Sequence record: PV806337.1
Reading direction: 5' to 3' (one strand)
Length of the DNA stretch: 64,000 bases
Origin: a phage
Shown: positions 8,295 through 50,029 of the stretch, piece by piece
How the letters are laid out: each line of letters begins with the position of its first letter
Numbering within the stretch: position 1 is the first letter of the stretch
Translations under genes and position numbers: made by a program
The notes under the pieces: generated by a model
The model's input: the letters and a program-made list of their open reading frames with translations, nothing else
The model's database searches: none
Told to the model about the DNA's origin: nothing

Positions 8295-8323
8295 TTGCTT
8301 TTTGCTGTAAACCTTGTTATAAT
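8295..8323 (+). promoter_or_regulatory. T5-type sigma70 early promoter (TTGCTT-17-TATAAT) for phoH-nrdA operon
   Basis: -35 at 8295-8300, -10 at 8318-8323, A/T-rich upstream. Confidence 0.7.
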
Positions 8324-8399
8324 ATATTTGTAAGTTGATAAACAAGATCTCTTTGTTGATCCTCTGTTAGAAGCGAAGTACACTATAGGAGTGTTATTT

Positions 8400-9152
8400 A
8401 TGGGAAAAGCACGTCAAAAAAGAGAGAACCGCAATGGTTCAAGAAAGCGTGGCAACAAGTATGAGAATAACGTAATTCAGGCTGATTTTTCTAATGATTA
8501 CGCTAACCCAGTTGCTAAATCCCTAGTAGGTAAAAACCGCGAGCAAAAATCATATATCAATATGATCAAGAACAACACAGTGACTGTGGGCATCGGTGAG
8601 CCAGGTACTGGTAAAACCTTTATTCCGTCCGTTCTTGCAGCTCAGGAACTCGTAGACATTCACTCAGATATTGAGCAAGTGATCCTCGTACGTCCTAATG
8701 AACCTCTAGGTAAGTCTCTTGGTATGCTTCCTGGTGATCTAGCAGAAAAGCTAGAGCCTTGGTTGGAGCCAATAGCTGATGGTATGAAATGGGCCATCGG
8801 CGATCATGCCTATAAGGGATATGTCGAACGTCAGAAAATTAAATTTTTGGCTGTCGAACATGCTCGTGGCAGAACTTTCAACAACTCCTATGTAATTGTC
8901 GATGAAGCTCAGAATATTTCCGTTGAGGCAATGATTTGTCTTCTAACTCGTGTAGGGCAAGACTGCCGTTTAATTATCTGCGGAGATATAGCTCAGAAAG
9001 ACATTAAAGGTGACTCAGGTCTAGCACTCCTTATGGAAGTCTATGAGAAATACGAAAATGCCCCATTCTCAATGATCGAATTGATTGATAACGTTCGTTC
9101 TGTTGAGTCTAAAGCATTCTATGACATCTTTAAAGACATGGGGAAGGTGTAA
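8400..9152 (+). CDS. phoH: PhoH-like ATPase
   Basis: ORF track frame; ATG 8400 with AGGAG 8 nt upstream; Walker A GEPGTGKT and Walker B VIVDEAQN. Confidence 0.8.
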   Translation: MGKARQKRENRNGSRKRGNKYENNVIQADFSNDYANPVAKSLVGKNREQKSYINMIKNNTVTVGIGEPGTGKTFIPSVLAAQELVDIHSDIEQVILVRPNEPLGKSLGMLPGDLAEKLEPWLEPIADGMKWAIGDHAYKGYVERQKIKFLAVEHARGRTFNNSYVIVDEAQNISVEAMICLLTRVGQDCRLIICGDIAQKDIKGDSGLALLMEVYEKYENAPFSMIELIDNVRSVESKAFYDIFKDMGKV

Positions 9153-9153
9153 T

Positions 9154-9375
9154 ATGGGAAACGTCGTTCATCTGAGCCGTAAAACTAAAATACATCGTAC
9201 TTCACTGAGTGCTGCTAATATGATTACACGTAAGGAAGGGGAAGAAAGTCCTAAGACAACCCTAGCGTGGAAAATTGTAACCTCAAATCCAAATAAACCA
9301 TTCAATTATAACGAGTTGAGCACCTCCATAGATATTCTATTAAAAGAAGTAGCTAGAACTAAAGTAATTGAATAA
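9154..9375 (+). CDS. hypothetical protein
   Basis: In-frame ATG 9154 immediately after phoH stop within track ORF 9085-9375. Confidence 0.45.
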   Translation: MGNVVHLSRKTKIHRTSLSAANMITRKEGEESPKTTLAWKIVTSNPNKPFNYNELSTSIDILLKEVARTKVIE

Positions 9376-9517
9376 GCTAAAAAGCTAGACTGGTAATATA
9401 CAGGGCCTGGGTATGAAAATACTCGGGCCTTTTCTATCAGAAAATTTTATTTGCCTAATGACCGATAATAAAGTAGAATATTCCTTAAATCCTGATAACT
9501 ATAAAAAGGAAAGCCAA

Positions 9518-11848
9518 ATGAGCCATCGCATTGAAAAAGTAATTAAACGTGACGGTACTGTAGAAGACTTTGCTCCTGAAAAAATCAATGGTTGGGCAGA
9601 GTATGGTTGCAAAACAGTTGATGTAAGCTGGTCAGCCATTACTATGGCTGCTCAAAAAACTCTGCCTAAAGGGGTTGTAGATTCCGACACTCTGATGGAT
9701 GCATTAATTAAAGCTGCTGAAAGTCTTATTAAAGATAATCCAGCATACGATGTGCCAGCAAAGGAATTACGTCTTGCGCAAATGCGTAAACGCCTTTATG
9801 ACTCTTTCGAACCACCTTCTTTACGCTTCTTCCATGACCACATGGTTAGCGTAGGTGCATGGGAAGACATGAGTGCATGGATTACCGATGAGCAATTTGA
9901 AGCTCTGAATCAGGTTATCGACCATGATCGTGACCGTCTTTTTACTAGTGGTGGGCTGAAGCAGTTCTTTGATAAGTATTCCCGTCGTAATATAGCCACT
10001 GGTGAAATTTATGAAACCCCGCAATTCGCCTACATGGGTATGGCAATGGCGATGTTATCTCAACCTAACTGGACAATTCTAGATGCAATCGACCTCTACA
10101 ACGCAATGTCGCTCCACAAAATCAACGTTCCTACGCCGCCACTGGTTGGTCTGCGCTCTAGTGACCGTGGATTTGCTAGTTGCTGTCTCGTGGATTCCAC
10201 TGACACGTTGGATTCAATCGACACCGCCGAGCACATCGTCTTCAAAATGGTCGCAGCCAGAGCGGGAATCGGGTATCATCTTGAAAGCCGATCAATTGCT
10301 GATCCGGTGCGAAATGGGGCATTCCCGCATTCCGGAAAACTGCCATATTATCGACACATTGACCGCTCAGTAAAGGCCAATACTCAGCAAACTCGTGGTG
10401 GTTCTGCTACAGTGTCTTATCCATACTTCGACCCTGAAATCATTCAATTGATGCAGGTTAAGCAACAACGTGCTACAGATGAGAATAAAATCGATAAGAT
10501 GGATTATTCTCTGAGCTTTAACAATCTTTTGTTAAAACGTTATCTTAAAAACGAAGATATTACGCTAATGTCATACTTCTATGCTCCAGAAGTTCATGAA
10601 GCGTTTTATAGTGATGACGAGGCTAAATTTGAAGAAATCTACGTGGCAGCGGAGAAACGTGTGGCATCTCTTACAAAGATCGACCACGAAGGAAAAACAG
10701 TTCCTGCAGCTCCTAAAGTCTCTGCAAAAGAAATCCTAGATACTTGGCTACGTATCCGAATGGAAACAGGACGTATGTATGCTCACCACATTGGGGAATC
10801 TAATCGTCACGGTAACTTCCTTGATCCGATCCGTATGACAAACCTTTGTGTTGAAATTACTCAGCCTACACGCCCGTTCCATCACATTACAGAGCTGTAC
10901 AAGACAAAAGAGCAGCTTGATCAAATGAAGCCGGAGGATATTGGTGAAGTATCTCTGTGTAACTTAGGTGGTGTTGTACTTGGACGCATGGAATCTCTGG
11001 CTGAGTGGGAAAAAACTTGCTACATCCTTCTGAAGTTTGTTGATACAATTATTGAAATTCAGGATTATCCGTTCCCAACTATGGAATATACGGCCAAGAA
11101 ACGTCGTAATGTCGGTATTGGCCTAATGAACGCAGCAGGTGCAATGGCAGCAGAAGGTCTGGCTTACGAAGGTATTGAAGCTCGTAACTGGATCCACCGT
11201 GAGGCTGAAAAACTGTCTTACTTCCTGCATAAAGCCTCTGTACGCCTGGCTAAGGAACAGGGTGCATGTGAGTGGTTTGATCGTACTAAACCATCTAAAG
11301 GAATTCTGGTAATCGACACGTACAAGAAAACTGTTGATGAGCTGGTATCCGTAGGTCTAGAAATGGACTGGGAGTCTCTGCGTGCAGATATTCTGAAATA
11401 TGGTATGCGTAACTCTGTTCTGACTGCTCAGATGCCGGGAGAAAGTTCTTCTGTTCTGTTAGGTGTTACTAACTCTATCGAACCACCTCGTAAGATTGTA
11501 TCTATCAAGGGTAGTGCAGTAAATAAAGTAATTGCAATTGCTCCAGGTGCAACCGATTGGGAAACGTTAATGAGCTATAAATTGGCTTATGATGTAGATC
11601 GTATCGAGTGGATCAAATGGGTAGCAACTATGCAGAAATTCTTCAGCCAGTCTGTTAGTACTAATATGTACTACGACTACACCAAGTTTGAGAATGAAAT
11701 TATTCCTGGCCCAGTAGTAGTTCGTGATTTCATGACTGCTGTTAAATACGGGTGGAAAACTTGGTATTATGCTAACTTCAACACCGCAAATGGTGGTGGT
11801 GCTGGAGAAGAAGCAGCTGGTTGTGCATCAGGCGGTTGTACTATTTAA
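9518..11848 (+). CDS. nrdA: ribonucleoside-diphosphate reductase alpha subunit (class I RNR)
   Basis: Track ORF 9413-11848; ATG 9518 after AAAGGAAAG; N-terminal ATP-cone KRDGT, core motifs NLCVEI and C-terminal Cys pair. Confidence 0.9.
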   Translation: MSHRIEKVIKRDGTVEDFAPEKINGWAEYGCKTVDVSWSAITMAAQKTLPKGVVDSDTLMDALIKAAESLIKDNPAYDVPAKELRLAQMRKRLYDSFEPPSLRFFHDHMVSVGAWEDMSAWITDEQFEALNQVIDHDRDRLFTSGGLKQFFDKYSRRNIATGEIYETPQFAYMGMAMAMLSQPNWTILDAIDLYNAMSLHKINVPTPPLVGLRSSDRGFASCCLVDSTDTLDSIDTAEHIVFKMVAARAGIGYHLESRSIADPVRNGAFPHSGKLPYYRHIDRSVKANTQQTRGGSATVSYPYFDPEIIQLMQVKQQRATDENKIDKMDYSLSFNNLLLKRYLKNEDITLMSYFYAPEVHEAFYSDDEAKFEEIYVAAEKRVASLTKIDHEGKTVPAAPKVSAKEILDTWLRIRMETGRMYAHHIGESNRHGNFLDPIRMTNLCVEITQPTRPFHHITELYKTKEQLDQMKPEDIGEVSLCNLGGVVLGRMESLAEWEKTCYILLKFVDTIIEIQDYPFPTMEYTAKKRRNVGIGLMNAAGAMAAEGLAYEGIEARNWIHREAEKLSYFLHKASVRLAKEQGACEWFDRTKPSKGILVIDTYKKTVDELVSVGLEMDWESLRADILKYGMRNSVLTAQMPGESSSVLLGVTNSIEPPRKIVSIKGSAVNKVIAIAPGATDWETLMSYKLAYDVDRIEWIKWVATMQKFFSQSVSTNMYYDYTKFENEIIPGPVVVRDFMTAVKYGWKTWYYANFNTANGGGAGEEAAGCASGGCTI

Positions 11849-11855: not shown

Positions 11856-11880
11856 AAGGAGATCTTCGGGTCTCCTTTTT
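11856..11880 (+). terminator. rho-independent terminator after nrdA
   Basis: Hairpin AGGAGATC-TTCG-GGTCTCCTT then T-run. Confidence 0.7.
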
Positions 11881-11894
11881 CTTTGAAATTTTAC

Positions 11895-11923
11895 TTGCTA
11901 ATCGCTACCAGATTTGCTATAAT
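11895..11923 (+). promoter_or_regulatory. T5-type promoter (TTGCTA-17-TATAAT) for nrdB-folA-thyA
   Basis: -35 at 11895-11900, -10 at 11918-11923, just after nrdA terminator. Confidence 0.7.
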
Positions 11924-11954
11924 ATTCCTGAAATAGTGAGAAAGAGGAAAATCA

Positions 11955-14484: not shown

Positions 14485-14497
14485 TTTAAAATATTAT

Positions 14498-14527
14498 TTG
14501 CTTTAATCCCAGTACTTATAGTATAAT
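14498..14527 (+). promoter_or_regulatory. T5-type promoter upstream of HNH endonuclease
   Basis: TTGCTT at 14498-14503, TATAAT at 14522-14527. Confidence 0.6.
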
Positions 14528-14558
14528 ATCTCCTATATACATTATAGGAGATATATTT

Positions 14559-15113
14559 ATGATCGTACAAGAGGGGTGGACAAAAGAATCCGCACGTAAT
14601 AGGTTTATCTATAATCCTCTTACTGGGGAGATTTTAAATAGAATTAACAGTGGTAGGGCTAAGAAAGGACAGATAGCCGGGTACCTAGACAAGTCTACTG
14701 GATATATTCGGGTAACATTGGCAGGAAAAAGAATGAAAGGACATCAGTTAGCCTTCTTATACATGGAAGGATATATACCTGATACTATAGATCACATCAA
14801 CAGAATAAAATCTGATAATAGATGGTGTAATTTAAGGGAATCTTCACCCCAAGAGAATGCTAGAAATATTAAAGCAAGAAGTAAATCTGGTTATTTAGGG
14901 GTTGGGTGGCATAAGCCAAGTCAAAAATGGTGGGTATATACTAAAGATGTAAAAGGAGCGCAGATTAATGGTGGTTACTTTGATTATACGAAATTAGAGG
15001 AAGCAGTCAATAAAGCTAATGAACTCCGTCAGCAATTACATGGACATACTGCTATTTTAGAAGTTTTTAATCCTGATCAACCAATACCTACCATAGAGGA
15101 ACTTAATAAATGA
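14559..15113 (+). CDS. HNH homing endonuclease with AP2-like DNA-binding domain
   Basis: ORF track 184 aa; IDHINRIKSDNRWCNLR (HNH) and SKSGYLGVGWHK (AP2-like); own promoter at 14498-14527. Confidence 0.75.
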   Translation: MIVQEGWTKESARNRFIYNPLTGEILNRINSGRAKKGQIAGYLDKSTGYIRVTLAGKRMKGHQLAFLYMEGYIPDTIDHINRIKSDNRWCNLRESSPQENARNIKARSKSGYLGVGWHKPSQKWWVYTKDVKGAQINGGYFDYTKLEEAVNKANELRQQLHGHTAILEVFNPDQPIPTIEELNK

Positions 15114-15586: not shown

Positions 15587-15607
15587 TAAATAAATTAAAA
15601 AATTTTC

Positions 15608-15636
15608 TTGCTTAAAGCCCTCTAATTTAGTATAAT
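15608..15636 (+). promoter_or_regulatory. T5-type promoter
   Basis: TTGCTT 15608-15613, 17 bp, TATAAT 15631-15636. Confidence 0.7.
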
Positions 15637-15663
15637 ATTCGTATTGAAAGTGAGGAGGGCTTT

Positions 15664-15942: not shown

Positions 15943-15958
15943 TTTTTAAAAAATTCAT

Positions 15959-15987
15959 TTGCTAAACGCTTCAAATTCTCGTATAAT
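15959..15987 (+). promoter_or_regulatory. T5-type promoter with AAAAATTCATTTGCTA upstream block
   Basis: TTGCTA 15959-15964, 17 bp, TATAAT 15982-15987. Confidence 0.75.
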
Positions 15988-16025
15988 ATACTTCATAAAT
16001 TGATAAACAAAAAGGAAAATAAATA

Positions 16026-17127: not shown

Positions 17128-17829
17128 ATGAAAGTAAAACCATTTGGTATGCTAGATATTGAATCTCTGGGAACTCCAGGAGATTGTGGTACTACTCATA
17201 TCGCAATGCCTTCTTTCGCTTTTGTGGCTATGCATGGAATTGATAAAGACCCTGATCTAATATTTGTTACTTTGGATGTACAAGATCAGCTTAATTCTGG
17301 TGCCAAAGTTACAGCATCTACTCTAGCATTCTGGATGGATCAAGCTAAAAATAGCCCGTCTGCTATCCACATTATGGAAGCTATGAAGGAACGTAATCCA
17401 AAACTGATTGCCTTCCAAAATGGTAAACATCATTGCACTAATAAACTCGGCTCTAACTATGCTGCCTACTCTATGGCTAAAAATATTATGGAGTTGGCTT
17501 TAGGCGAAAATGCTTTGTATTATGGAAACGGTCCAGAGTTTGATATGACTATCTACTCTGCAAACACGTTCCATGCTGGAACCAATGAAGAGGTAGTTCC
17601 GTGGAAATTCTGGAATTTGGGTAATGTTCGATCTCTTCGTAACCTCTGGATGCAGGCTGGATACAGTTATAAAGCTCTAGAGACCGAAGGTATTAGCTGG
17701 GCAATAGCTAAAATGGAGAAGATGGACACCATTCGTTATGGGATCTATCCGGTTAAGCACGACCCAGCATTTGATGCCTTAGTTGAGAGCTATTGTGTTG
17801 CAGCTATGATCGAAAAAATGAAAATTTGA
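17128..17829 (+). CDS. DnaQ-like 3'-5' exonuclease
   Basis: ORF track 233 aa; Exo I-like MLDIESLG and Exo III-like HDPAFDAL motifs. Confidence 0.6.
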   Translation: MKVKPFGMLDIESLGTPGDCGTTHIAMPSFAFVAMHGIDKDPDLIFVTLDVQDQLNSGAKVTASTLAFWMDQAKNSPSAIHIMEAMKERNPKLIAFQNGKHHCTNKLGSNYAAYSMAKNIMELALGENALYYGNGPEFDMTIYSANTFHAGTNEEVVPWKFWNLGNVRSLRNLWMQAGYSYKALETEGISWAIAKMEKMDTIRYGIYPVKHDPAFDALVESYCVAAMIEKMKI

Positions 17830-17830
17830 T

Positions 17831-17859
17831 TTGCTTCCGGCTCCAAAATTCTGTATAAT
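17831..17859 (+). promoter_or_regulatory. T5-type promoter
   Basis: TTGCTT 17831-17836, 17 bp, TATAAT 17854-17859. Confidence 0.7.
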
Positions 17860-17899
17860 ATATTCATAAATTTGAGAAAACAATAAAAGGAAAACAAAT

Positions 17900-18774: not shown

Positions 18775-19157
18775 TAATTTAAAAGCTAGTAAATCGGTAG
18801 ACGAAAGCCCAAGCATCTTACCTCGCAGCAGCGGTTGAAATACGAGGTTAAATAAGACCGCTGACCATACTATAAAGTATAATCTATTGGAGATTATGTT
18901 TATTACACCAGCCTTTTAAGCTGACACGTAAGAACAAAGCGTCGTTGATATTACCGACACAACTTCAAAGATCAACATTTAAGTATGAAAGCTGAAAAGT
19001 TTAAAGAACTCAAACTTCTAAACTTCTAAAGCTAAAAGATGCAAAGTATTCGTTGATGATTCAAACCCTAGATCAAAGGTACATGGCTCATAAGATATGG
19101 CCTGTGGCGCCTCTAGGCTGTTTATCGGTTTACTAGTTTCACAATTTAAAAATGTAT

Positions 19158-19186
19158 TTGCTAATTTACTAAGTTATCTGTATAAT
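19158..19186 (+). promoter_or_regulatory. T5-type promoter
   Basis: TTGCTA 19158-19163, 17 bp, TATAAT 19181-19186. Confidence 0.7.
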
Positions 19187-19216
19187 ATATTTTTAAATTG
19201 ATGAAACGAGGCTATT

Positions 19217-19534
19217 ATGACTTTTCATATTTTGATTGATGATGTGCGTAATCTTCACGGAATGGATATTATCATTCGAACCCCAGAAGCCGCTGTAGAG
19301 TTTCTGAATAAAACTGATACCACCGGCCATTTCGTTTATATGGATAATGACTTGGCTGTAGATGGTATGGAAGGTTATCAAATTCTTCGTTTACTCTTAG
19401 AATTTGGGCAGAGACCAAAGAAAGTGGTACTAGTAACCTCGAACCCAGTAGCTAAGCAAAATATGCGTAATGATTTGCTTGACTTAGGGTATAAAGAAAA
19501 TCCCAATCGTGTTGAATATGATTGGCAGGAGTAA
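19217..19534 (+). CDS. hypothetical protein
   Basis: ORF track 105 aa after promoter 19158-19186. Confidence 0.55.
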   Translation: MTFHILIDDVRNLHGMDIIIRTPEAAVEFLNKTDTTGHFVYMDNDLAVDGMEGYQILRLLLEFGQRPKKVVLVTSNPVAKQNMRNDLLDLGYKENPNRVEYDWQE

Positions 19535-19539
19535 AAAGA

Positions 19540-19989
19540 ATGAAGGCAGCTTTGCTTTTAGTAGCTGCCCTTACCTTCAGCTTTAGTAGTCAGGCATCGC
19601 ACGATGCAAAAGAAATAGATTGCATTGCTAAAAATATCTATTTCGAAAGTCGTGGTGAGGGCATAAAGGGAATGACGGCGATTGCACATGTTACTAAAAA
19701 CCGTGTAAACTCCGGTAAATTCCCAGATTCCTACTGTAAAGTAGTATATCAGTCTAACCAGTTCTCTTGGGTATCTAAGAGACCAAAAGTTGATAAAACT
19801 GATGAGGCTTGGCAAACCGCTAAGAATTTAGCTAGAGTGATATACTACGTTGATTTACCACAAGATCCTACATATGGAGCACTATACTTCCATAGTGGTA
19901 AAGATAAACCTTACTGGACAAAGAAGTTTAAGAAAACAACTAAGATTAAGGGACATACATTCTATAAACCTGTTGTCACTAAAACTTAA
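19540..19989 (+). CDS. secreted cell-wall hydrolase (SleB-like)
   Basis: In-frame ATG 19540 within track ORF; signal peptide; hydrolase-like core IYFESRGE. Confidence 0.6.
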   Translation: MKAALLLVAALTFSFSSQASHDAKEIDCIAKNIYFESRGEGIKGMTAIAHVTKNRVNSGKFPDSYCKVVYQSNQFSWVSKRPKVDKTDEAWQTAKNLARVIYYVDLPQDPTYGALYFHSGKDKPYWTKKFKKTTKIKGHTFYKPVVTKT

Positions 19990-19997
19990 AAATTTAC

Positions 19998-20026
19998 TTG
20001 CTTAGCTACTTAAATTTCTGTATAAT
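19998..20026 (+). promoter_or_regulatory. T5-type promoter
   Basis: TTGCTT 19998-20003, 17 bp, TATAAT 20021-20026. Confidence 0.7.
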
Positions 20027-20057
20027 ACTTTCATAAATTAATGAGAGGAAGCGAAAT

Positions 20058-20228
20058 ATGAAATCAGTTGTAATTATTGGTGTTAACACTCGCGGTATTC
20101 GTACTACGAAAACTGTTAAAACTTCTAACGTTGCTGAAATAACTACGAACCCTAAAAAGTTTGATTTCGCCAAAGTCTCAGCAGTTATGACAGAACAATC
20201 TTTTAACCAAGCATTGGGGATGAAATAA
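20058..20228 (+). CDS. hypothetical small protein
   Basis: 56-codon frame read by eye (below track cut-off); GAGAGGAAG RBS after promoter 19998-20026. Confidence 0.45.
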   Translation: MKSVVIIGVNTRGIRTTKTVKTSNVAEITTNPKKFDFAKVSAVMTEQSFNQALGMK

Positions 20229-20662
20229 TGGGTGAAAATATTCTAATGACCCTTCGTGGACTACTTAGTCTAGCACGTACTCACGGTGATAAGGAACGGG
20301 CACTTAATCTTCAGACCATGATTGGTGATCTGCAACGTATTGATAAAGACATTGTTACTCGAACCGAGTTCGTAGCCTATCTGAAAGCTCAGATTAAGGC
20401 TCTAGAAAATGCAAAACAACGCGCTATTAAAGTTGGTATGGAAGTTCCTACTGATGTAGACTATGAGCAACTGCTTTATTCCATGCTGCAAGAGTATCAG
20501 CCAAGTCAACTGACTGAGGTTCAGATTCGTGAGTATTTTGCAGAACTGGTTAAATTAAACCCAGGTATTACCAAAGCTCTATTAATGAAAACTATTAAGG
20601 CAGAATTTCCCGGACGTTATGACGGTAAAACAACTGCTTTGATTGCTAGTGAATTTTTCTAA
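20228..20662 (+). CDS. hypothetical protein
   Basis: ORF track 144 aa. Confidence 0.55.
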   Translation: MGENILMTLRGLLSLARTHGDKERALNLQTMIGDLQRIDKDIVTRTEFVAYLKAQIKALENAKQRAIKVGMEVPTDVDYEQLLYSMLQEYQPSQLTEVQIREYFAELVKLNPGITKALLMKTIKAEFPGRYDGKTTALIASEFF

Positions 20663-20670
20663 AAATTCAT

Positions 20671-20699
20671 TTGCTAAATGCTTATAAATTCTGTATAAT
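20671..20699 (+). promoter_or_regulatory. T5-type promoter driving ORF-free/tRNA segment
   Basis: TTGCTA 20671-20676, 17 bp, TATAAT 20694-20699. Confidence 0.7.
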
Positions 20700-20922
20700 A
20701 TATTCATAAATTAGGGAACAGCGAGCCGATTACGCTGAGTGCAGAATCCCAACCGGAGCGCATTGAATAGAGTCGGTGGGTTAGTTGTAAAACTAGTACA
20801 CAGGGGGCGGCAATCCCGGTTAGTGGCTAGAACGTGTAAAATGAGGCGTCTGAAACCTCTCCCCTAAACTCTTCTCTGATTTATAAATAGTGGGGTGTGG
20901 AAATCACTTATGTAGTAACACT

Positions 20923-20994
20923 GCCGTCCTAGTATAATTGGTATTATCAAGCCGTAACTGGTGGAAGATGTAGGTTCGAATCCTACGGTCGGTA
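20923..20994 (+). tRNA. tRNA-like gene, anticodon unresolved
   Basis: Canonical T-arm GTAGG-TTCGAAT-CCTAC followed by acceptor 3' strand; 5' acceptor pairs with one mismatch; no clean anticodon stem found by eye. Confidence 0.35.
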
Positions 20995-21496
20995 AGAACT
21001 GGATAACTGATGCTTTTAACATAAAAGCTTCCGAGGTTAGTTGCGCACTGCCTAAACCACGCGGTAGTTGGTTCCAGACTAACCAACCAGTCTGCTGAAT
21101 AGTTTTATTACGATTTAACTATGTCCAGGCTAAAGAAGAACTTTAGAAGGTATTCTAGGATAGTGAAGTTCTTTCTCCATATCGGAGTAGTTTTTCAAGC
21201 TATCCACAAAGTGGGAAATGCTGACATGAGAGATGTCACTAATGGTGCACAATAGCACAGGTAATTCGCGATAACTCCTGTTGAGTAGCAGCAAAAGGTG
21301 GGAAGTCATGACCCCAAGCCTAACCGAGTCCTCAATATACCGCAGGACATAACCACTAAGTCACCCTGACTTAAACTGGAAAATAATAGACGTTACTGTA
21401 TTTTGTCTTGAAATACTTAATGAGTGAGACTTATGACTCTCCCGGTATCGTCTGTATTTTTAAGAGTTTTTACGAGAGTTCTTAAAAATACTTAAA

Positions 21497-21571
21497 CGGG
21501 GTGTAGTCTAAGGGAGAGGCAGGAGTCTTCTAAATTCCTTTATGCAGGTTCGAATCCTGTCACCTCGGCCA
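21497..21571 (+). tRNA. tRNA-Arg (anticodon TCT)
   Basis: Acceptor CGGGGTG/CACCTCG, D-stem GTCT/AGGC, anticodon loop CTTCTAA, T-loop TTCGAAT, encoded CCA. Confidence 0.7.
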
Positions 21572-21605
21572 ATTTTATTAACTGTAACTAAAACAAAGGA
21601 AATAT

Positions 21606-22553
21606 ATGTTTGCTACTAAAAATATGAAAGAACTGACTTCTGAGCAGAAAGTAATTCGTACTATTAAACGTTGGGGTATTGGTGCTGTAGTTGGTTTAGC
21701 AGGTTTAATCCTAGCTTTTAATTCATATACTATTGTTTCTGATGGTACGGTTAAAACCCAAACATTCCTGGGTAAAGTAGACCCTAATCCAGTATTGCCG
21801 GGCTTCCATCTTGTAAACCCGTTTGCATCTTTCGATACTTTTAGTACAAAAGATATTGCTGTAAAATTAGATAAACTTCAGGTTCCTAGCCAGGATAAGT
21901 TTAAATCCACTGTTGACCTGACTGTTATGTTGCAGTTTGATGGTTCTAAAGCACCGATTAACCGTATTAACGCAGGTACTCAGGATCAGGCACTAGACAA
22001 GTATGTAACTGAAAAATTACTGTCTACTATTCGTGAGTTTGGTAAGTCTGTACCTAAAGCACAAGATTTATTTGATGCTAAAATTCAGGCTCAATTGCAA
22101 ACTGCAATTCAACAGGAAGTTGAAGAGTATGCGCGCCCATATGGTTACACAGTTAAGCAGGTATTCCTTCAGGATATTACCTTGCCGCCAGTAATCATGG
22201 AACAGGTACAGAATACCAAAGTTCGTGAAGAGCAAGTTAATGCTGCGAAAGCTGAACTTGCTCGCGTTGAACAGGAAGCACAGCAAAAAGTTAAACAAGC
22301 AGAAGCAGATCGTGAAGCTCGTAACAACCAAGCTATTGCTAATGAACGTGACGCAGATGCTAAACTGTACGCAGCTAAGAAAGAAGCTGAAGCTAACGCC
22401 GCATTGCAACGTACCATTACTCCTGAAATGATTCGTTGGAAACAACTGGAAGTTGAAATGATCCGTGCTCAGAAGTATCAAGGTGGTGTACCTCAGACTG
22501 TGGTAGGTACTGGCTACGATGGTCAAATGATCATGGATATGCGTAACAAGTAA
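21606..22553 (+). CDS. SPFH/band-7 (prohibitin/HflK-like) membrane protein
   Basis: ORF track 315 aa; N-terminal TM segment, SPFH-like core, Ala/Glu/Gln-rich coiled-coil tail. Confidence 0.65.
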   Translation: MFATKNMKELTSEQKVIRTIKRWGIGAVVGLAGLILAFNSYTIVSDGTVKTQTFLGKVDPNPVLPGFHLVNPFASFDTFSTKDIAVKLDKLQVPSQDKFKSTVDLTVMLQFDGSKAPINRINAGTQDQALDKYVTEKLLSTIREFGKSVPKAQDLFDAKIQAQLQTAIQQEVEEYARPYGYTVKQVFLQDITLPPVIMEQVQNTKVREEQVNAAKAELARVEQEAQQKVKQAEADREARNNQAIANERDADAKLYAAKKEAEANAALQRTITPEMIRWKQLEVEMIRAQKYQGGVPQTVVGTGYDGQMIMDMRNK

Positions 22554-22577
22554 TAGTTACACGTAATCTTCGAACCA

Positions 22578-22617
22578 AGCCCGCGTTTCCTACGAGAGCG
22601 CGGGCTTTTCTGTATTT
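22578..22617 (+). terminator. rho-independent terminator after SPFH gene
   Basis: Hairpin AAGCCCGCG...CGCGGGCTT then T-run. Confidence 0.7.
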
Positions 22618-22624
22618 AAGGCAA

Positions 22625-22665
22625 AAGAAAAAGCCCCTTACCTTTCGGCAGGGGCTTTTGTTTTT
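22625..22665. terminator. bidirectional terminator
   Basis: Hairpin AGCCCCTTACC-TTTCGG-CAGGGGCTT with A-run 5' and T-run 3'; lies between convergent gene sets. Confidence 0.65.
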
Positions 22666-22872
22666 GGTTTAGAACCATACTCTCGGTGTACAGCAACCAC
22701 CCATACGGGAGGCCAATCTTGACTGAAAATCTACTCTAGGGGGCAGGATAAGAGTAGGCTTAAAGGCAAAGGGATTGAACGCCGGTATTTGCGTAAACAT
22801 TGCTGGAGAGCAACAACGTGCTACAGGCACTGGGCAGCACGAAACAGATTTTCTGCAACACATATTTCCTCC

Positions 22873-23289: not shown

Positions 23290-23310
23290 AATGGGCTCCT
23301 CCCCTTAATA

Positions 23311-24300: not shown

Positions 24301-24507
24301 ATTTTGACACCTCCTAGTATATAGAAAATGTGTGTCTCTTTGATCACTCATCCATAACATATACTTTACACTACCCCAGCGAAAATGTCAAGGGGTCTTT
24401 AAAAATTGCCCCCGGATTTTTAGTGGGGTCACAAATTTTGGTCCTCCCCACTTATCTGCTACCCTTAAGTGCCCTATGATTTTCCTCTAAAAAGTTAAAA
24501 AATTTGA

Positions 24508-24536
24508 TTGCTTGAATGCTAAATTCTCTGTATAAT
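24508..24536 (+). promoter_or_regulatory. T5-type promoter
   Basis: TTGCTT 24508-24513, 17 bp, TATAAT 24531-24536. Confidence 0.7.
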
Positions 24537-24566
24537 ATATCTATAAATTTGAGAGAGGAACCAAAT

Positions 24567-25085
24567 ATGAATGTTGATGAGCTAACACAGCACCTCTTAT
24601 CCAGAGGATTTGATACAGATAAATATCATTGCTGGTTAAGTCCGGAAGGATGGCTAACAGTCCCGTTGTATGACTTCTCCGGGATGTTGCGAGGCTATCA
24701 GACGTATAATCCTTCTGCTCCAAAAGGTCATGGTAAGTGTCCCTTTGAAGCTAAATATTTTACTTATTCTACTACCCAGTGTGTATGGGGACTAGAAACT
24801 CTCAATGGAGATGAAAAAGTAGTATTGATCGCTGAATCTGTATTTAAGGCAGTTGCGCTACATAACGCTGGTTATCCAGCCCTGGCAATGTTAGGTTCTT
24901 CTCCAGGAAAAGCGTTATTAAAGCAACTGAAATTATTACCTTTTAAATTGGTAGCTGTCGGAGACAACGATCCTGCGGGTGAAAAATTTGCTAGAAAATT
25001 AAACGGCTTTGTTTCTCCCGTAGATGTGGATGAGATGTCTACCGAAAACTTGAAAAATTTTCTTGCTATGAAGCTAAATTTCTAA
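24567..25085 (+). CDS. Toprim-domain protein (primase-like)
   Basis: In-frame ATG 24567 after promoter 24508-24536; LIAESVF..VAVGDNDPAGEKFA resembles DnaG Toprim. Confidence 0.55.
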   Translation: MNVDELTQHLLSRGFDTDKYHCWLSPEGWLTVPLYDFSGMLRGYQTYNPSAPKGHGKCPFEAKYFTYSTTQCVWGLETLNGDEKVVLIAESVFKAVALHNAGYPALAMLGSSPGKALLKQLKLLPFKLVAVGDNDPAGEKFARKLNGFVSPVDVDEMSTENLKNFLAMKLNF

Positions 25086-25091
25086 TATAAT
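25063..25091 (+). promoter_or_regulatory. T5-type promoter embedded in 3' end of Toprim-like gene, driving tRNA cluster
   Basis: TTGCTA 25063-25068, 17 bp, TATAAT 25086-25091; tRNA-Ser starts at 25107. Confidence 0.65.
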
Positions 25092-25106
25092 ATATCTTAT
25101 AAATTC

Positions 25107-25195
25107 GGAAGAATAGCATAACGGTATTGCAGCAGATTGCTAATCTGTCGGTTTGAAATATAGCCTTGTGGGTTCGATTCCCACTTCTTCCGCCA
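25107..25195 (+). tRNA. tRNA-Ser (anticodon GCT)
   Basis: Acceptor GGAAGAA/TTCTTCC, anticodon loop TTGCTAA, long variable arm, T-loop TTCGATT, CCA. Confidence 0.75.
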
Positions 25196-25201
25196 AATTC
25201 T

Positions 25202-25279
25202 GGTTCTCAAGCTCATATGGTATGAGCACCCGGCTCATAACCGGAAGGTACGTAGGTTCGAATCCTCGGGGAGCCACCA
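25202..25279 (+). tRNA. tRNA with CAT anticodon (Met/fMet/Ile2 type)
   Basis: Acceptor GGTTCTC/GGGAGCC, D-stem GCTC/GAGC, anticodon loop CTCATAA, T-loop TTCGAAT with weak T-stem, CCA. Confidence 0.5.
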
Positions 25280-26243: not shown

Positions 26244-26273
26244 CTCCTCCAAACAGAATTTTTAAAAATGTAC

Positions 26274-26303
26274 TTGCCTTTTGCTTTAAATTTCTGATAT
26301 AAT
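26274..26303 (+). promoter_or_regulatory. T5-type promoter
   Basis: TTGCCT 26274-26279, 18 bp, TATAAT 26298-26303. Confidence 0.6.
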
Positions 26304-26333
26304 AGTTATATAAATTGATGAAGGAGTTAACTA

Positions 26334-26609: not shown

Positions 26610-26645
26610 CTAATACAGCATTGGGTAAGTTCTTTAAAATTTGAC

Positions 26646-26674
26646 TTGCTCAGTGCCTTAAAACTTGGTATAAT
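26646..26674 (+). promoter_or_regulatory. T5-type promoter driving tRNA-Tyr/Glu/Trp/Phe group
   Basis: TTGCTC 26646-26651, 17 bp, TATAAT 26669-26674. Confidence 0.65.
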
Positions 26675-26737
26675 AGTTATCTAATTTGGAAACATATTTA
26701 AAAGTGTTTAAACTAGTATTTGAATACTTTTAAATAT

Positions 26738-27095: not shown

Positions 27096-27368
27096 ATGCA
27101 TCCTGAAAACTTCTTTATTTACTGCGCTGATAAGTCGCTGAAACGTAGAATTAACAAAGTCTATCATTATAGTGCTAGTCAACAGCCTTATGTATACGCT
27201 TTTGACGGTGATCACATTCCACTAGAACAATTATCTTGTGATTACATGATATTGAAGAACTTTGATGAGACGAAGATCTCGAGCGTTCACAATCGACAGA
27301 ATCCATTAACGTGGAAATATAAGAAGAAAAAGAAAGGCATCAAATTCTTAAAAAATGTAGTTGCTTAG
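27096..27368 (+). CDS. hypothetical protein
   Basis: ATG 27096 with GAAGGAG RBS, inside track ORF 27081-27368. Confidence 0.5.
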   Translation: MHPENFFIYCADKSLKRRINKVYHYSASQQPYVYAFDGDHIPLEQLSCDYMILKNFDETKISSVHNRQNPLTWKYKKKKKGIKFLKNVVA

Positions 27369-27389
27369 TTTCCAAAAGTTCTGTATAAT
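27361..27389 (+). promoter_or_regulatory. T5-type promoter driving tRNA-Cys
   Basis: TTGCTT 27361-27366, 17 bp, TATAAT 27384-27389. Confidence 0.7.
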
Positions 27390-27437
27390 AATTACATAAA
27401 TTGAACTGGAGAAGCAACATGACAGAACAAGATAAAC

Positions 27438-29352: not shown

Positions 29353-29500
29353 CACTATAAAGTTTACTTATTATGTAGGTTCCGATAGACCGGCGGGTCT
29401 ATTCTGGCATTTAAGAGAGGTCTCGCAAACTTCTTTGTCAGCCGTGGGGTTGGTAGCCTCCAGGTGGCCTACACAATAAGTAAATTTATTAAAAATTCAT

Positions 29501-29529
29501 TTGCTATTCTGCTTTATTATCTGTATAAT
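29501..29529 (+). promoter_or_regulatory. T5-type promoter
   Basis: TTGCTA 29501-29506, 17 bp, TATAAT 29524-29529. Confidence 0.7.
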
Positions 29530-29561
29530 ATATTTTATAAAGTGAAGAGAAGGAAAGCAAA

Positions 29562-30154: not shown

Positions 30155-30172
30155 ATTTCAAGAAAAACGCAG

Positions 30173-30201
30173 TTGCTTGATGCTTAATTTCTTGTTATAA
30201 T
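30173..30201 (+). promoter_or_regulatory. T5-type promoter driving ORF-free segment and tRNA-Ala
   Basis: TTGCTT 30173-30178, 17 bp, TATAAT 30196-30201. Confidence 0.7.
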
Positions 30202-30438
30202 ATTTATATAAATTGATGAGGAGAAATCCTCATCATAGTTCACTAAGGTATTAGCTCGACCTAGGACTGGCTACCAAAAAGCACGATCCCTACGATTTGG
30301 AGAAGTTCTAGATTAGTCCACTAGATTCAGCGGCAACTGAATAGTGTATTGGGTTTGCGAGATGACGCAGTTCCTTCCGCTCGAAGCGAAGGTGCTGTAG
30401 TTACGCCGAGCTAATAGCCTTAGTAAACTAAAGAATTT

Positions 30439-32553: not shown

Positions 32554-32568
32554 AATTTAAAAATTCAT

Positions 32569-32597
32569 TTGCCTTCTCTCTTATTTCTTGTTATAAT
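32569..32597 (+). promoter_or_regulatory. T5-type promoter
   Basis: TTGCCT 32569-32574, 17 bp, TATAAT 32592-32597. Confidence 0.65.
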
Positions 32598-32627
32598 ATT
32601 TATATAAATTAATGAGAGGGAAACCAA

Positions 32628-34568: not shown

Positions 34569-34605
34569 AACCCCAGCTATTGAACAAGTAGTCTGGGGTT
34601 TTTCT
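34569..34605 (+). terminator. rho-independent terminator
   Basis: Hairpin CCCCAGCT...AGTCTGGGG then TTTTTCTG. Confidence 0.65.
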
Positions 34606-34680
34606 GTATACAGGTAAATAGTTTATGTATAATAAAATTCATCCACATTAGGTTAATTTAAAAGACTTAATGGAGGTAAT

Positions 34681-35028: not shown

Positions 35029-35044
35029 ATTCTGAAATAATTCA

Positions 35045-35073
35045 TTTGCTAAACCTCTCTTTTCTTGCTATAA
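35045..35073 (+). promoter_or_regulatory. T5-type promoter
   Basis: TTGCTA 35045-35050, 17 bp, TATAAT 35068-35073. Confidence 0.7.
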
Positions 35074-35104
35074 TATATTTATAAATTGATGGGAGAGGTT
35101 TGAA

Positions 35105-37156: not shown

Positions 37157-37170
37157 TAATAAAATTTTAG

Positions 37171-37199
37171 TTGCTTAGATGCCCAAACTTTTGTATAAT
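37171..37199 (+). promoter_or_regulatory. T5-type promoter
   Basis: TTGCTT 37171-37176, 17 bp, TATAAT 37194-37199. Confidence 0.7.
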
Positions 37200-37230
37200 A
37201 TGTTTATAGATTGAGGCAAGAGGATTAAAT

Positions 37231-40022: not shown

Positions 40023-40085
40023 TATCTAAAATTCTTCTTGACAACGACATAATTTTGTGCTCCAAGTGTAACATTTAAAAACCCA

Positions 40086-40114
40086 TTGAAATTTTCCTCC
40101 AAAATTAGTATAAT
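40086..40114 (+). promoter_or_regulatory. sigma70-type promoter of lysis cassette
   Basis: TTGAAA 40086-40091, 17 bp, TATAAT 40109-40114; holin start TTG 40140. Confidence 0.55.
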
Positions 40115-40139
40115 GGTACTGGTTAGAGGAGGTTACAAA

Positions 40140-41700: not shown

Positions 41701-41713
41701 GATAAAAAAGTAG

Positions 41714-41742
41714 TTGACTTTTAGCCCTAGTTATTATATAAT
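41714..41742 (+). promoter_or_regulatory. sigma70-type promoter
   Basis: TTGACT 41714-41719, 17 bp, TATAAT 41737-41742. Confidence 0.65.
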
Positions 41743-41775
41743 ATATACATAAATTAGTTAAGAGAGGTATATATT

Positions 41776-42490: not shown

Positions 42491-42497
42491 TAAACAA

Positions 42498-42530
42498 AGC
42501 CTGATCTTAGCGGATCAGGCTTTTATTTTA
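42498..42530 (+). terminator. rho-independent terminator
   Basis: Hairpin AGCCTGATC-TTAGC-GGATCAGGCT then TTTTATTTT. Confidence 0.7.
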
Positions 42531-42531
42531 C

Positions 42532-42560
42532 TTGCTTTTTGCTAAAAATTTTGGTATAAT
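42532..42560 (+). promoter_or_regulatory. T5-type promoter
   Basis: TTGCTT 42532-42537, 17 bp, TATAAT 42555-42560. Confidence 0.7.
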
Positions 42561-42587
42561 ATTTATATAAATTGATCGGAGGATTAA

Positions 42588-44578: not shown

Positions 44579-44686
44579 GTATATAGCTGAGGTTATTATT
44601 AAACGAATCATACAGGCGATAGCAATACTTATAATCATTTGTATTGCTATTGGCACAGGATTAGGCATTTTAATTAAAAGTTTTAT

Positions 44687-44715
44687 TTGCTAAAATGCTT
44701 AAGTTTCTGTATAAT
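44687..44715 (+). promoter_or_regulatory. T5-type promoter
   Basis: TTGCTA 44687-44692, 17 bp, TATAAT 44710-44715. Confidence 0.7.
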
Positions 44716-44745
44716 TGCTGTATAAATTGATGAGAAGGAATCAAA

Positions 44746-45177: not shown

Positions 45178-45194
45178 GTAATTAAAAAATTCAG

Positions 45195-45223
45195 TTGCTT
45201 TAAGCCTTAAAATTCTGTATAAT
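45195..45223 (+). promoter_or_regulatory. T5-type promoter
   Basis: TTGCTT 45195-45200, 17 bp, TATAAT 45218-45223. Confidence 0.7.
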
Positions 45224-45255
45224 AAGTTCATAAATTAATGAGAGAGGAAATTCTA

Positions 45256-47739: not shown

Positions 47740-47924
47740 TGGAAACTCTTTTTCTTTTAATGCTCGTAGGTTCTCTGTTACTAATACTAGCACTTCTACT
47801 AATCTGCAATATTCTTAATAATAAGAATCTAGAGCTAAAGTGTGAGAACCAAATCCTTAACCGTGAACTTAAACAATATAATCTAGCAGCCTATAAACTG
47901 TTAGACAAACTGGAGAATAAATAA
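47739..47924 (+). CDS. small membrane protein
   Basis: ORF track 61 aa. Confidence 0.45.
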   Translation: METLFLLMLVGSLLLILALLLICNILNNKNLELKCENQILNRELKQYNLAAYKLLDKLENK

Positions 47925-48526
47925 TGACTTTTAATGCGCAACAATCTATTCAAGTAGTGCCAGATCATGAACTGAACACATGGGATTATAGCTTTAAAGA
48001 TTTAACCGCTACTGTACAATTTAAATCTATGAAGCTAACATTTGCACACACTGACCTTAGAGCATGTAAAGGTCTTGAGGATAAGCTCGAAGATGCTCGC
48101 AAGATTTTTGGTAAGGCTCGCATCCCAGCTGATAATCTAATTAACGCATTAATCGATGCAGGGTACAAACTTGTGAAGACTGAGGTGAACCGCCCTAGTA
48201 CTCCAGTGACTATTAGAGATCCGTGGCAGTCAGGGACAATCGCAATGCTGAATAAATCATCGGATTTGCACAATGTTCCTTGTGGGGGTGTGATAAGTAG
48301 TACGCAGTCATATAAGTTTGGGGAAGATTACGGCCCTTCTGTACAGTTGAAACATACTCAAGAAGCTTTTGAATCTGATATGCGAAGCGTAGCACCTGCG
48401 GATGCTGAAGGTTTTAGAAGTCCCATCTATGTTACTCACTTTAATAATCTTAGGCCTGGGAGTATAAATGATGCTATCCTTGAAGCGTTGGGAGCTGCTA
48501 TTAATGAAGATAAGAGGGGTAATTAA
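47924..48526 (+). CDS. hypothetical protein
   Basis: ORF track 200 aa; internal reverse ORFs judged spurious. Confidence 0.55.
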   Translation: MTFNAQQSIQVVPDHELNTWDYSFKDLTATVQFKSMKLTFAHTDLRACKGLEDKLEDARKIFGKARIPADNLINALIDAGYKLVKTEVNRPSTPVTIRDPWQSGTIAMLNKSSDLHNVPCGGVISSTQSYKFGEDYGPSVQLKHTQEAFESDMRSVAPADAEGFRSPIYVTHFNNLRPGSINDAILEALGAAINEDKRGN

Positions 48527-49251
48527 TGAGTATAAAAAAGAATTTAGCAGAGATTATTAAGTTAGCTAGAGCTTGTAATGGAAAATGTGTTTCTCAGCTT
48601 AATGAACTAGAAGCACATGCAGTAGCATTTTGTGCAGAGTTTTATCCTGCATACCTTAATGCTAGTGGGCAACCTAAATATAATAAGGATGCCGAAGAAG
48701 TTACGTTAGCTCCTTCATATATTAGCTTGCGTCGTTTAATTCAAACCGTTGATCCTACTATTAAAGGATTCTCAGCAGATTCATTCCACGTCTTTGCAGA
48801 TAAAGAACTCCCGTATTTTAAAGAAGGAAATGCAAAGTCATGTTTAGAATGTTATCCTAATATACTGATGATTCCTCAAAAGCAATGTAAATACGATCAT
48901 CTTCCTAGACTTACAAAGAAAGTAGCACCACCTTATTCTTCTCTATCTGAATTAAAGCTAGGAATTGTATCTACACTTGCGCAGATTCATCTAAGTATAG
49001 TTGACGACTCAACAACATCTAACCCTATTCTAGATGCTGCTCACTTTGAAATTTTACGTGATCCTGAACAAGCTAGAAAAGTTGCTAAGTCTGTTAAGTT
49101 TGATATATCAACAATTCTTGACACTAAACAAGAAACTAGACCTAGAGGAAGTGTAGATTATTCTGCGCTAAATTCCGAGTCATCTTACTTAGCAACATTC
49201 CTTTTCATGGCGTCAAAAGGGGTTATTCTAAAGGTTAATAAAGATGGATGA
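48526..49251 (+). CDS. hypothetical protein
   Basis: ORF track 241 aa. Confidence 0.55.
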   Translation: MSIKKNLAEIIKLARACNGKCVSQLNELEAHAVAFCAEFYPAYLNASGQPKYNKDAEEVTLAPSYISLRRLIQTVDPTIKGFSADSFHVFADKELPYFKEGNAKSCLECYPNILMIPQKQCKYDHLPRLTKKVAPPYSSLSELKLGIVSTLAQIHLSIVDDSTTSNPILDAAHFEILRDPEQARKVAKSVKFDISTILDTKQETRPRGSVDYSALNSESSYLATFLFMASKGVILKVNKDG

Positions 49252-49972
49252 TTTACGTGCTGAAATTAATAAAAAGTTACGAGAGGAAGCCCGGAGGTTT
49301 CCTCTTAAAAACTTTTTGAAGTCAAATGGCTCTACTAATATAACGAAGATTAGGCAACTTCACCCTGACTTCCAACAAGAGGCCTTAAACCTTATCTTTA
49401 TTAGGAAAGCTTTAAAAGTCCAGAAAGAAGAGTATGGGTATGAAAGAGTTAATTATAAGACAGCCAATCAGTTAGTAGAGATATGGTGCTATAAACATAA
49501 AGGATACTTTATGCAAACTGCTAGATCTCACCTAGATGGGCACGGTTGTTTACAATGTGCTAGGGAAAGCAACCTAAATACACCTATCGAGAAACCGGAG
49601 GTAGAAGAAGATGTTCAGTCCCCCACATATCTCTATATCTTCTCTAATAAAGATCAGTCTAGGAAGAAATTAAAGACAAAGATTGGGGTTTCTAGAGAGC
49701 CACATCAAAGGTTTAAGAATCTAGAGTATGATAAATTGCGTGTGCCGGGTTTTGAAGATATGGAAGTATTTGGTATCTACCAGTATAAGAAAGGATCGAA
49801 AGAACTCGCTTACAAAATAGAACACCAAGCACATAAATTTTTCGAGAATAAATTTGCTAACCATTATAAATTCGATGGAGCAAAAGAGATATTCAACATT
49901 AAAGCTGTAGAGGCAGAAGAATATCTATTAAGTCAAGGTTGCATAAAAATTTACCCAACTCCAAACTCATGA
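49244..49972 (+). CDS. zinc-ribbon + T5orf172 (GIY-YIG-like) domain protein
   Basis: ORF track 242 aa; GHGCLQC ribbon; YLYIFSN..KIGVS..FDGAKEIF pattern. Confidence 0.6.
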   Translation: MDDLRAEINKKLREEARRFPLKNFLKSNGSTNITKIRQLHPDFQQEALNLIFIRKALKVQKEEYGYERVNYKTANQLVEIWCYKHKGYFMQTARSHLDGHGCLQCARESNLNTPIEKPEVEEDVQSPTYLYIFSNKDQSRKKLKTKIGVSREPHQRFKNLEYDKLRVPGFEDMEVFGIYQYKKGSKELAYKIEHQAHKFFENKFANHYKFDGAKEIFNIKAVEAEEYLLSQGCIKIYPTPNS

Positions 49973-49999
49973 CAAAAATTTAAAAGTAACGAAATCTGC

Positions 50000-50029
50000 T
50001 TGACATTCGTGAGAATAATGTGTTATAAT
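50000..50029 (+). promoter_or_regulatory. consensus sigma70 promoter (TTGACA-18-TATAAT) with no ORF downstream
   Basis: TTGACA 50000-50005, TATAAT 50024-50029; next about 300 nt lack a credible ORF and lead into the repeat field. Confidence 0.6.

Follow-up and report, generated by a model that had tools for sequence, protein, structure and literature searches.

The 64,000-nucleotide stretch of phage DNA analysed here (sequence record PV806337.1; hereafter the window) is, by sequence comparison, that of a T5-like coliphage (Tequintavirus), and its subject is a promoter-plus-leader module that recurs across the early region. A 7-kb piece of the window (19,000-26,000) shares 99.9% identity with Escherichia phages T5_ev212, EC148 and MM-1 and is matched by 464 T5-like records. 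The window is colinear, in reverse orientation, with the T5 reference NC_005859 at ~83–98% identity (overall ~90%). Positions 8,206-48,527 correspond to T5 53,781-11,898, which comprises the left early region and the tRNA cluster, and positions 50,265-60,905 correspond to the pre-early terminal repeat. ARAGORN predicts 21 tRNA genes between 21,497 and 33,377. The module has the consensus tAAAAATTcat–TTGCTw–17 bp–TATAAT–ATATTc–ATAAATTgatGAGAGG, in which the two hexamers are the -35 and -10 elements, ATATTc is the discriminator and the last segment covers the initial transcribed sequence (ITS) and the leader.

The hexamer pattern TTGCTW-N16-18-TATAAT has 21 exact matches in the window, compared with 0.27 expected and a maximum of 2 in shuffled sequence. 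A two-block weight matrix was built from 22 copies with a 17-bp spacer; since these seeds were picked by the two hexamers alone, the remaining columns are free of ascertainment. Scanning with the matrix yields 27 copies scoring 17–71 bits, while all 20 shuffled windows remain at or below 0.5. Twenty-three strong copies occupy the plus strand from 8,283 to 45,247, each oriented like the genes downstream of it, and together with two atypical sites (9474 and 50024; sites are named by the first base of the -10 hexamer) they account for the "about 25" copies counted in an earlier note on this DNA. Four further copies, on the minus strand at 2259, 5501, 55436 and 62184, lie beyond the set of that note, so that the full set consists of 29 sites, 27 strong and two weak variants. 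The downstream part recurs as clearly as the hexamers: TATAAT-N6-7-ATAAATT has 18 matches against 0.04 expected. The bare heptamer ATAAATT, counted alone, is not enriched (45 versus 34.6 expected). Shuffles of the hexamer pattern, of the matrix and of the TATAAT-ATAAATT pattern rule out chance or AT-richness as the source of the modules. A generic TTGACA/TATAAT sigma-70 scan of 8000-47999 shows no excess (50 versus 55 expected; 55 versus 59 in a second scan), which indicates that the signal is specific to the TTGCTW class rather than a general promoter-likeness, and that this class would escape standard promoter scans.

Positional comparison identifies the class. Twenty-four of the 29 sites are orthologues of 75-bp "promoter" features in the T5 reference, including the experimentally derived P-H207, P-D/E33, P16-17, P15a/b/c, P14a/b, P13a/b, P11 and P-F30, and P-N25 in the same reference carries the same module (AAAAAATTTATTTGCTTTCAGGAAAATTTTTCTGTATAATAGATTCATAAATTTGAGAGAGGAG). 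P-N25 is the "T5 promoter" of the pQE-type expression vectors, and the homologies at -43 and +7 were reportedly already named in the 1985 work of Gentz and Bujard, the classic source on T5 promoters. For the T5-like phage AKFV33, 32 promoters and a sequence logo were published, with the consensus TTGCTw, a 17–18 bp spacer, TATAATA, AAAAATT at -43 and TAAATT at +1 (Niu 2012, PMC3326045), and the discriminator ATATT was described as common to all known early T5 promoters (Klimuk 2020, PMC7472727). The promoter class is therefore already known, from the T5 reference annotation and from the 2012 logo. The AKFV33 description agrees nearly word for word with that of the earlier note, which missed that the modules are a textbook T5 promoter class; the AKFV33 paper put the AT-rich blocks down only to DNA curvature and complex stability, and drew no line between the ITS and the ribosome-binding part. 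With the T5 early promoters (PN25, PN26, P-H207, P-D/E33 and P-K28a) the window shares the consensus from -45 to +18, the use of host polymerase and the temporal class. Relative to T5 itself, a ~90%-identical relative, individual copies differ by a few substitutions, and some promoter-adjacent T5 genes, such as hegH, are absent.

These data make it very probable that every module is a strong early promoter of the sigma-70 type, belonging to a T5-like phage and joined to a short mRNA leader of standard form. The description as promoter-plus-leader cassettes is borne out by the overlap with T5 promoter features, by the co-directional genes and by a predicted +1 that mostly falls 21–27 nt before the start codon. 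The statement that nearly every early transcription unit begins with the module is slightly too strong: the modules do head early units, but at least two T5-annotated promoters in the range covered by the note, at 34,587-34,660 (P10a) and 40,066-40,139, lack the downstream part.

Conservation along the module

Across the 27 strong copies, the columns other than the two hexamers hold about 32 bits of information, compared with 18 bits within the hexamers. The alignment thus upholds the view that conservation continues well past the -35 and -10 elements. The A block (AAAAaTTTA, -45 to -36) contributes 9.3 bits, the -35 hexamer 8.6, the spacer (...gcCt.AAaTTTttg) 7.0, the -10 hexamer 9.8, the discriminator (ATaT.T) 4.2, ATAAATT (+1 to +7) 6.1 and the segment from +8 to +18 (.atGAga.a.a) 5.2 bits, and the flanks beyond -50 and beyond +19 fall to 0.07–0.11 bit per position. 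Within the A block, an A5 tract occupies -45 to -41 and is followed by TT; information is near zero upstream of -46. In three copies (5501, 11918 and 42555), the position of the A block is filled by the T-tract of an upstream terminator. A TG element is found at the canonical TGn position (-15/-14) in 10 of the 27 copies and is shifted to -14/-13 in another 10, leaving 7 with neither. A G-C-C/T triplet at -26 to -24, 3–5 nt past the -35 hexamer, reaches up to 1.15 bits and extends that element to TTGCTwnnnGCT; examples lie at 20680-20682 and 45204-45206, and the triplet is also found in a Klebsiella phage.

As early promoters, the modules would be read by the unmodified host RNA polymerase, and their long conservation would represent a stack of separately useful elements. 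The A5 tract may act like a proximal UP-element subsite, bound by the C-terminal domain of the polymerase alpha subunit, and thereby speed polymerase recruitment; an A/T tract is present at the place of that subsite (about -46 to -38), and stimulation through the alpha C-terminal domain is proposed by analogy. The class-specific -35 hexamer TTGCTW, the exact 17-bp spacer and the consensus TATAAT would form the core element. The AT-rich promoter-proximal part of the spacer (AAATTTcTG), often with TG at -15/-14 or -14/-13, would ease bending of the upstream duplex onto sigma region 3, and the AT-rich discriminator ATATTC would add a further element. PN25 has a canonical UP element 5' of the -35 hexamer and an AT-rich spacer that resembles both the distal UP consensus and the 'fullcon' spacer; its open complex forms very fast and is very stable, so that escape is rate-limiting (PMC12464699). 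By analogy, the conserved A5 tract and AAATTT spacer block of the window correspond to the UP element and UP-like spacer of PN25. With UP-element promoters (rrnB P1; lambda PR) and the 'fullcon' spacer, the modules likewise share the A-tract around -43 and the AT-richness of the spacer, although their strong conservation is confined to the proximal A5 tract.

Downstream of +1, the PN25 experiments again provide the closest comparison. Replacement of +3 to +20 cuts the productive RNA of PN25 ~10-fold, and escape, at +11, is fastest with the AT-rich ITS of the native promoter (PMC12464699). The copies in the window average 8.9 A/T among the 11 positions from +1 to +11, and 14.3 purines among the 20 non-template positions from +1 to +20, with a mean of 0.85 C versus 3.9 expected. 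An ITS of this kind, AT-rich, purine-rich and poor in C, would scrunch easily and permit quick clearance despite very tight binding. The purine block GAGAGG (+11 to +17) would then act as the Shine-Dalgarno sequence, a strong one set in a leader free of structure, and the start codon would follow at about +22 to +28; in most copies before a protein gene, it lies 21–27 nt past the predicted +1. The Shine-Dalgarno zone holds 6.3 bits in promoter-proximal leaders versus 2.2 bits at 32 internal genes, and GAGAGG itself occurs in 7 of 20 promoter-proximal leaders versus none of the 32 internal genes. Anchoring the block on +1 or on the start codon gives nearly equal information (6.4 versus 6.25 bits), and the two distances are nearly fixed to each other. 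Leader folding equals that of shuffled sequences (mean minimum free energy -1.75 versus -1.93 kcal/mol; mean z 0.04), which indicates unstructured leaders, and an Rfam search of the window returns tRNAs only.

The copies that precede RNA genes separate the two functions. ATAAATT is retained in three of these four copies (20694, 25086 and 30196), the fourth, 26669 (tRNA-Tyr), having CTAATTT. The GAGAGG block is gone at 20694, which precedes a stable RNA and tRNA-Arg, and at 25086, where tRNA-Ser starts from about +10. At 30196 (T5 P13b), pairing of the purine block of the ITS, GATGAGGA, with TCCTCATC just downstream gives a 5' hairpin (30214-30235) in the stretch 30208-30235. This hairpin coincides with the 5' end of the RNA annotated in T5 as stable RNA 2H. 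Because ATAAATT is kept and the Shine-Dalgarno block is lost before RNA genes, and because the leaders are unstructured, the downstream region is divided into two parts: +1 to +7 is a transcription-level (DNA) feature, and +8 to +18 serves chiefly as a strong ribosome-binding site within an open leader. Both functional causes that the earlier note had offered for the extended conservation thereby gain support, promoter escape by analogy with the PN25 replacement experiments, and leader function from the information in the Shine-Dalgarno zone and the loss of the ribosome-binding part before RNA genes.

Copies across the window

The strong plus-strand copies begin at 8318 (8283..8347; -10 hexamer 8318-8323), the orthologue of T5 53638-53712, which has the ITS variant GTAAGTT and a long 70-nt leader ahead of a phoH-like gene. 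The plus-strand weak variant at 9474 (9439..9503), TTGCCT-17-TAGAAT, lies 5' of nrdA and has the A block, with an ITS that departs from the consensus. The 11918 copy (11883..11947) stands immediately past a terminator hairpin (11856-11877) and has a T5 orthologue, as do the copies at 15631 (15596..15660), 17854 (17819..17883), 19181 (19146..19210), 35069 (35034..35098) and 37194 (37159..37223). The copy at 14522 (14486..14551), which has an 18-bp spacer, was recovered by the matrix scan; in it, a perfect 12-bp palindrome, ATATCTCCTATA...TATAGGAGATAT (14526-14554), takes the place of the discriminator and the ITS. As RNA, this palindrome is predicted to pair with the Shine-Dalgarno sequence, and the gene that follows (14559-15113) falls within a region that does not align to T5.

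Among the copies with named T5 counterparts, 15982 (15947..16011) is the orthologue of P-H207, and 20021 (19986..20050) that of P-D/E33. The P16-17 orthologue at 20694 (20659..20723) heads the unit of stable RNA and tRNA-Arg. The three P15 promoters correspond to 24531 (24496..24560; P15a), 25086 (25051..25115; P15b), which overlaps the 3' end of the upstream open reading frame (ORF), and 26298 (26262..26327; P15c), which has an 18-bp spacer. The P14a orthologue at 26669 (26634..26698) heads the tRNA-Tyr/Glu/Trp cluster and is followed by that of P14b at 27384 (27349..27413). P13a corresponds to 29524 (29489..29553) and P13b to 30196 (30161..30225), which heads a stable RNA, while the P11 orthologue at 32592 (32557..32621) begins 5 nt past tRNA-Thr. 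In addition to the ARAGORN genes, the Rfam tRNA model matches at 20923-20994, 25202-25276 and 27004-27075 on the plus strand; these may correspond to tRNA-like stable RNAs or pseudo-tRNAs annotated in T5.

Towards the end of the early region, the 41737 copy (41702..41766) combines the -35 hexamer TTGACT with the ITS ATAAATT and has a T5 orthologue. So do the 42555 copy (42520..42584), in which the position of the A block coincides with the T-tract of a terminator (42496-42523), and the 45218 copy (45183..45247), which matches the consensus best of all (70.6 bits). Between these two lies 44710 (44675..44739), the orthologue of P-F30. The last plus-strand site, at 50024 (49988..50053; -10 hexamer 50024-50029), is atypical: it reads TTGACA-18-TATAAT, has no A block at -43 and continues with the ITS CATAGATT. 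It points from the last early ORF to the boundary of the terminal repeat, and its hexamer ends at 50029, where the range of the earlier note also ends. No ORF of at least 45 amino acids follows it on the same strand for ~450 nt (to about 50420), and the equivalent T5 stretch (about 10,220-10,930) bears no annotated feature; the site may give rise to a non-coding transcript. Within the last early ORF, three ATAAATT heptamers occur in 40 bp (49833-49872, plus strand) at spacings of 15 and 18 nt, possibly by chance.

On the minus strand, the 2259 copy (2230..2294) belongs to the divergent early region and corresponds to T5 58999-59073, and the 5501 copy (5472..5536) corresponds to T5 55708-55782. 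In the pre-early terminal repeat, the 55436 site (55407..55472) is module-like, TAGCCA-18-TATAAT-ATACAT-ATAAATTAATGAGA. Its -35 hexamer TAGCCA is poor, its ITS is good, and there is no obvious ORF behind it; the site is kept in T5 (plus strand, about 6040-6110), where it is unannotated. The 62184 copy (62155..62219) lies 5' of an 88-amino-acid ORF. The same module is found at the promoter of the T5 lipoprotein gene lpp, and this ORF is assumed to be the lpp orthologue.

Class specificity, relatives and alternative explanations

The module is characteristic of one temporal class. Pre-early promoters (for example, P-H22 at window positions 56,136-56,209) have TTGACA or TTGATA and are without ATAAATT, and the same holds for the late promoters P-G25 and P-J5 of the T5 reference, which are without both TTGCTW and ATAAATT, whereas the module does occur at the early promoter of lpp. 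In a Klebsiella T5-like phage (A1 protein 73% identical), ~20 copies have the same consensus, including ATAAATT. In the more distant Vibrio T5-like phage D239 (A1 34% identical; OZ196063, 55000-104000), 26 hexamer-defined sites were found. Twelve of the 26, in the early region (for instance at 15168, 18680, 24469, 30180, 35304, 36579, 38629 and 41166 on the plus strand), share a near-invariant segment of 26–29 nt after TATAAT (ACTTGTATAGAATGAAGAAACGGAGAGAC) despite variable -35 hexamers and spacers. Identity reaches 80% or more in ten pairs, compared with none in the null, and a second sub-class in the tRNA region has AGTTaCAnAAAAT. The downstream segment is far more rigid in D239 than in T5. 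A uniform downstream segment is therefore a family-wide habit, with a sequence specific to each lineage.

Between the window and T5, the -10 hexamer shows 0% substitutions per site, the -35 hexamer 1.4%, the A block 3.8%, the spacer 6.4%, the ITS 5–6% and the flanks 7–8%; the value for the discriminator is noisy owing to one-nucleotide indels in two orthologue pairs. These rates introduce the points that weigh against an account by promoter strength, escape and translation. Only the hexamers and the A block change clearly more slowly than the flanks, and the per-site constraint on the ITS is weak. Escape and translation tolerate many sequences and do not by themselves explain why one heptamer is used 18 times, nor do such generic demands fully explain the different and more rigid downstream consensus of D239. 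In addition, +1 was set by analogy with PN25 (ITS with 9 AT and 2 GC at +1 to +11); by the same analogy we infer that every copy initiates at the A of ATAAATT and that every element acts as in PN25.

One response to these points is that the discriminator and the ITS, perhaps with TTGCTW, form a class-specific recognition site, read by a phage temporal regulator or a nucleoid protein of the host to switch the early class on or off as a block, with escape and translation as secondary benefits; the candidate readers are the D5 DNA-binding protein, the gpT5.026-modified polymerase and H-NS. Such a site is compatible with the preferred explanation and would account for the absence of the signature from pre-early and late promoters, for the ATAAATT that persists ahead of RNA genes, at which translation plays no part, for the consensus common to Escherichia and Klebsiella phages, and for the 12 near-identical D239 segments that persist despite variable -35 hexamers and spacers. 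The early discriminator has been proposed as the target of gpT5.026, in a study that calls the switching mechanism unknown (Klimuk 2020, PMC7472727), and TTCATAAATT resembles the H-NS high-affinity motif tCGATAAATT (Lang 2007) at 8 of 10 positions, a lead only, as the likeness may be mere AT-richness. However, no binding protein is known for the site, the per-site constraint between close relatives is weak, and AT-rich composition by itself accounts for the PN25 escape data, so that we consider a recognition site somewhat unlikely. Far less probable is that the downstream conservation acts at the level of RNA, for example through a structured 5' untranslated region, a processing site or a stability signal. 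Conservation of the leader to about +18 and a nearly constant spacing of +1 and start codon would suit this, but only tRNAs are found by Rfam, the folding energy equals that of shuffled leaders, and the loss of +8 to +18 with retention of +1 to +7 before RNA genes is better fitted by a Shine-Dalgarno sequence joined to a DNA-level ITS.

The earlier note had also raised recombinational spread of the cassette. On a wider form of this view, the cassette would be distributed or kept uniform by recombination, either as a mobile cassette or by gene conversion, and would serve as a junction for gene shuffling. There is precedent in the promoter-terminator cassettes of T4-type phages called PeSLs (Arbiol 2010, PMC2839356; Comeau 2014, PMC4122927). 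The PeSLs and the T5 modules are alike in being repeated strong sigma-70 early promoter cassettes across a region rich in small non-essential genes, and uniformity within a genome combined with difference between lineages, as seen for T5 and D239, is the pattern of concerted evolution. Moreover, of 40 synteny breakpoint edges relative to T5, 8 lie inside modules (5 of 20 events), compared with 2.9 expected at random positions (P = 0.006; one genome pair). The T5 HNH endonuclease gene hegH (T5 49,561-50,085), for example, is absent here with a boundary at 11925-11930, within the 11918 module between the discriminator and about +1, and similar boundaries lie at 20717, 26697, 27436 and 30158.

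The modules themselves argue against such spread in this genome. The 69-bp modules share a mean pairwise identity of 0.574 and a maximum of 0.768, with no pair at 80%; shuffling each column among the copies reproduces this mean and gives a null maximum of 0.726 +/- 0.021 (P = 0.055), and the sequence around the best-matching pairs is at random identity (17–37%). The spread of pairwise identities is somewhat wider than in the null (0.065 versus 0.052), which we attribute to a few divergent copies. The column-shuffle test rejects recent duplication or gene conversion of the cassettes, and a dispersed copy-and-paste element is rejected by the absence of shared identity beyond the functional consensus. 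As for junctions, modules are present at ~25% of all gene junctions by a rough estimate, which is close to 5 of 20 events, so that, for this one genome pair, the excess over random positions disappears against an estimated gene-boundary null. A hairpin scan places terminator-like hairpins beside two modules (11918 and 42555), and with weaker ones, such as that before 5501, an adjacent hairpin accompanies only about 3–5 of 27; in several cases, the module overlaps the end of the ORF before it or begins 5–9 nt past a tRNA. A few T5 modules resemble PeSLs in standing directly past a terminator or containing an indel boundary, whereas most have no stem-loop, the copies show no copy-and-paste signature, and breakpoints are not above the estimated gene-boundary rate for this genome pair. 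There is no evidence of recent copying in this genome, an ancient spread is possible, and recombination as the cause of the uniformity appears improbable.

Meaning for T5-like phages

The finding in itself matters little, as it rediscovers a promoter class, described in 1985 and since annotated, whose member PN25 has been used for decades in expression work and as a model of promoter escape. Two residual results are of value. Downstream, the conservation separates cleanly into a heptamer related to transcription and a purine block related to translation, and distant Vibrio T5-like phages possess a different, more rigid downstream consensus. What novelty is left would lie in a class- or lineage-specific reading of the downstream half, a proposal that we advance only tentatively. 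There is a small chance that this half, together with TTGCTW, is a cis-signature read by a lineage-specific factor, either for shut-off of the early class or for protection from host silencing. If this is true, a single signature would explain its absence from pre-early and late promoters, its retention before RNA genes, its conservation between Escherichia and Klebsiella phages, and the rigid but different consensus of the Vibrio phage. Both residual results bear on how T5 switches between its temporal classes.

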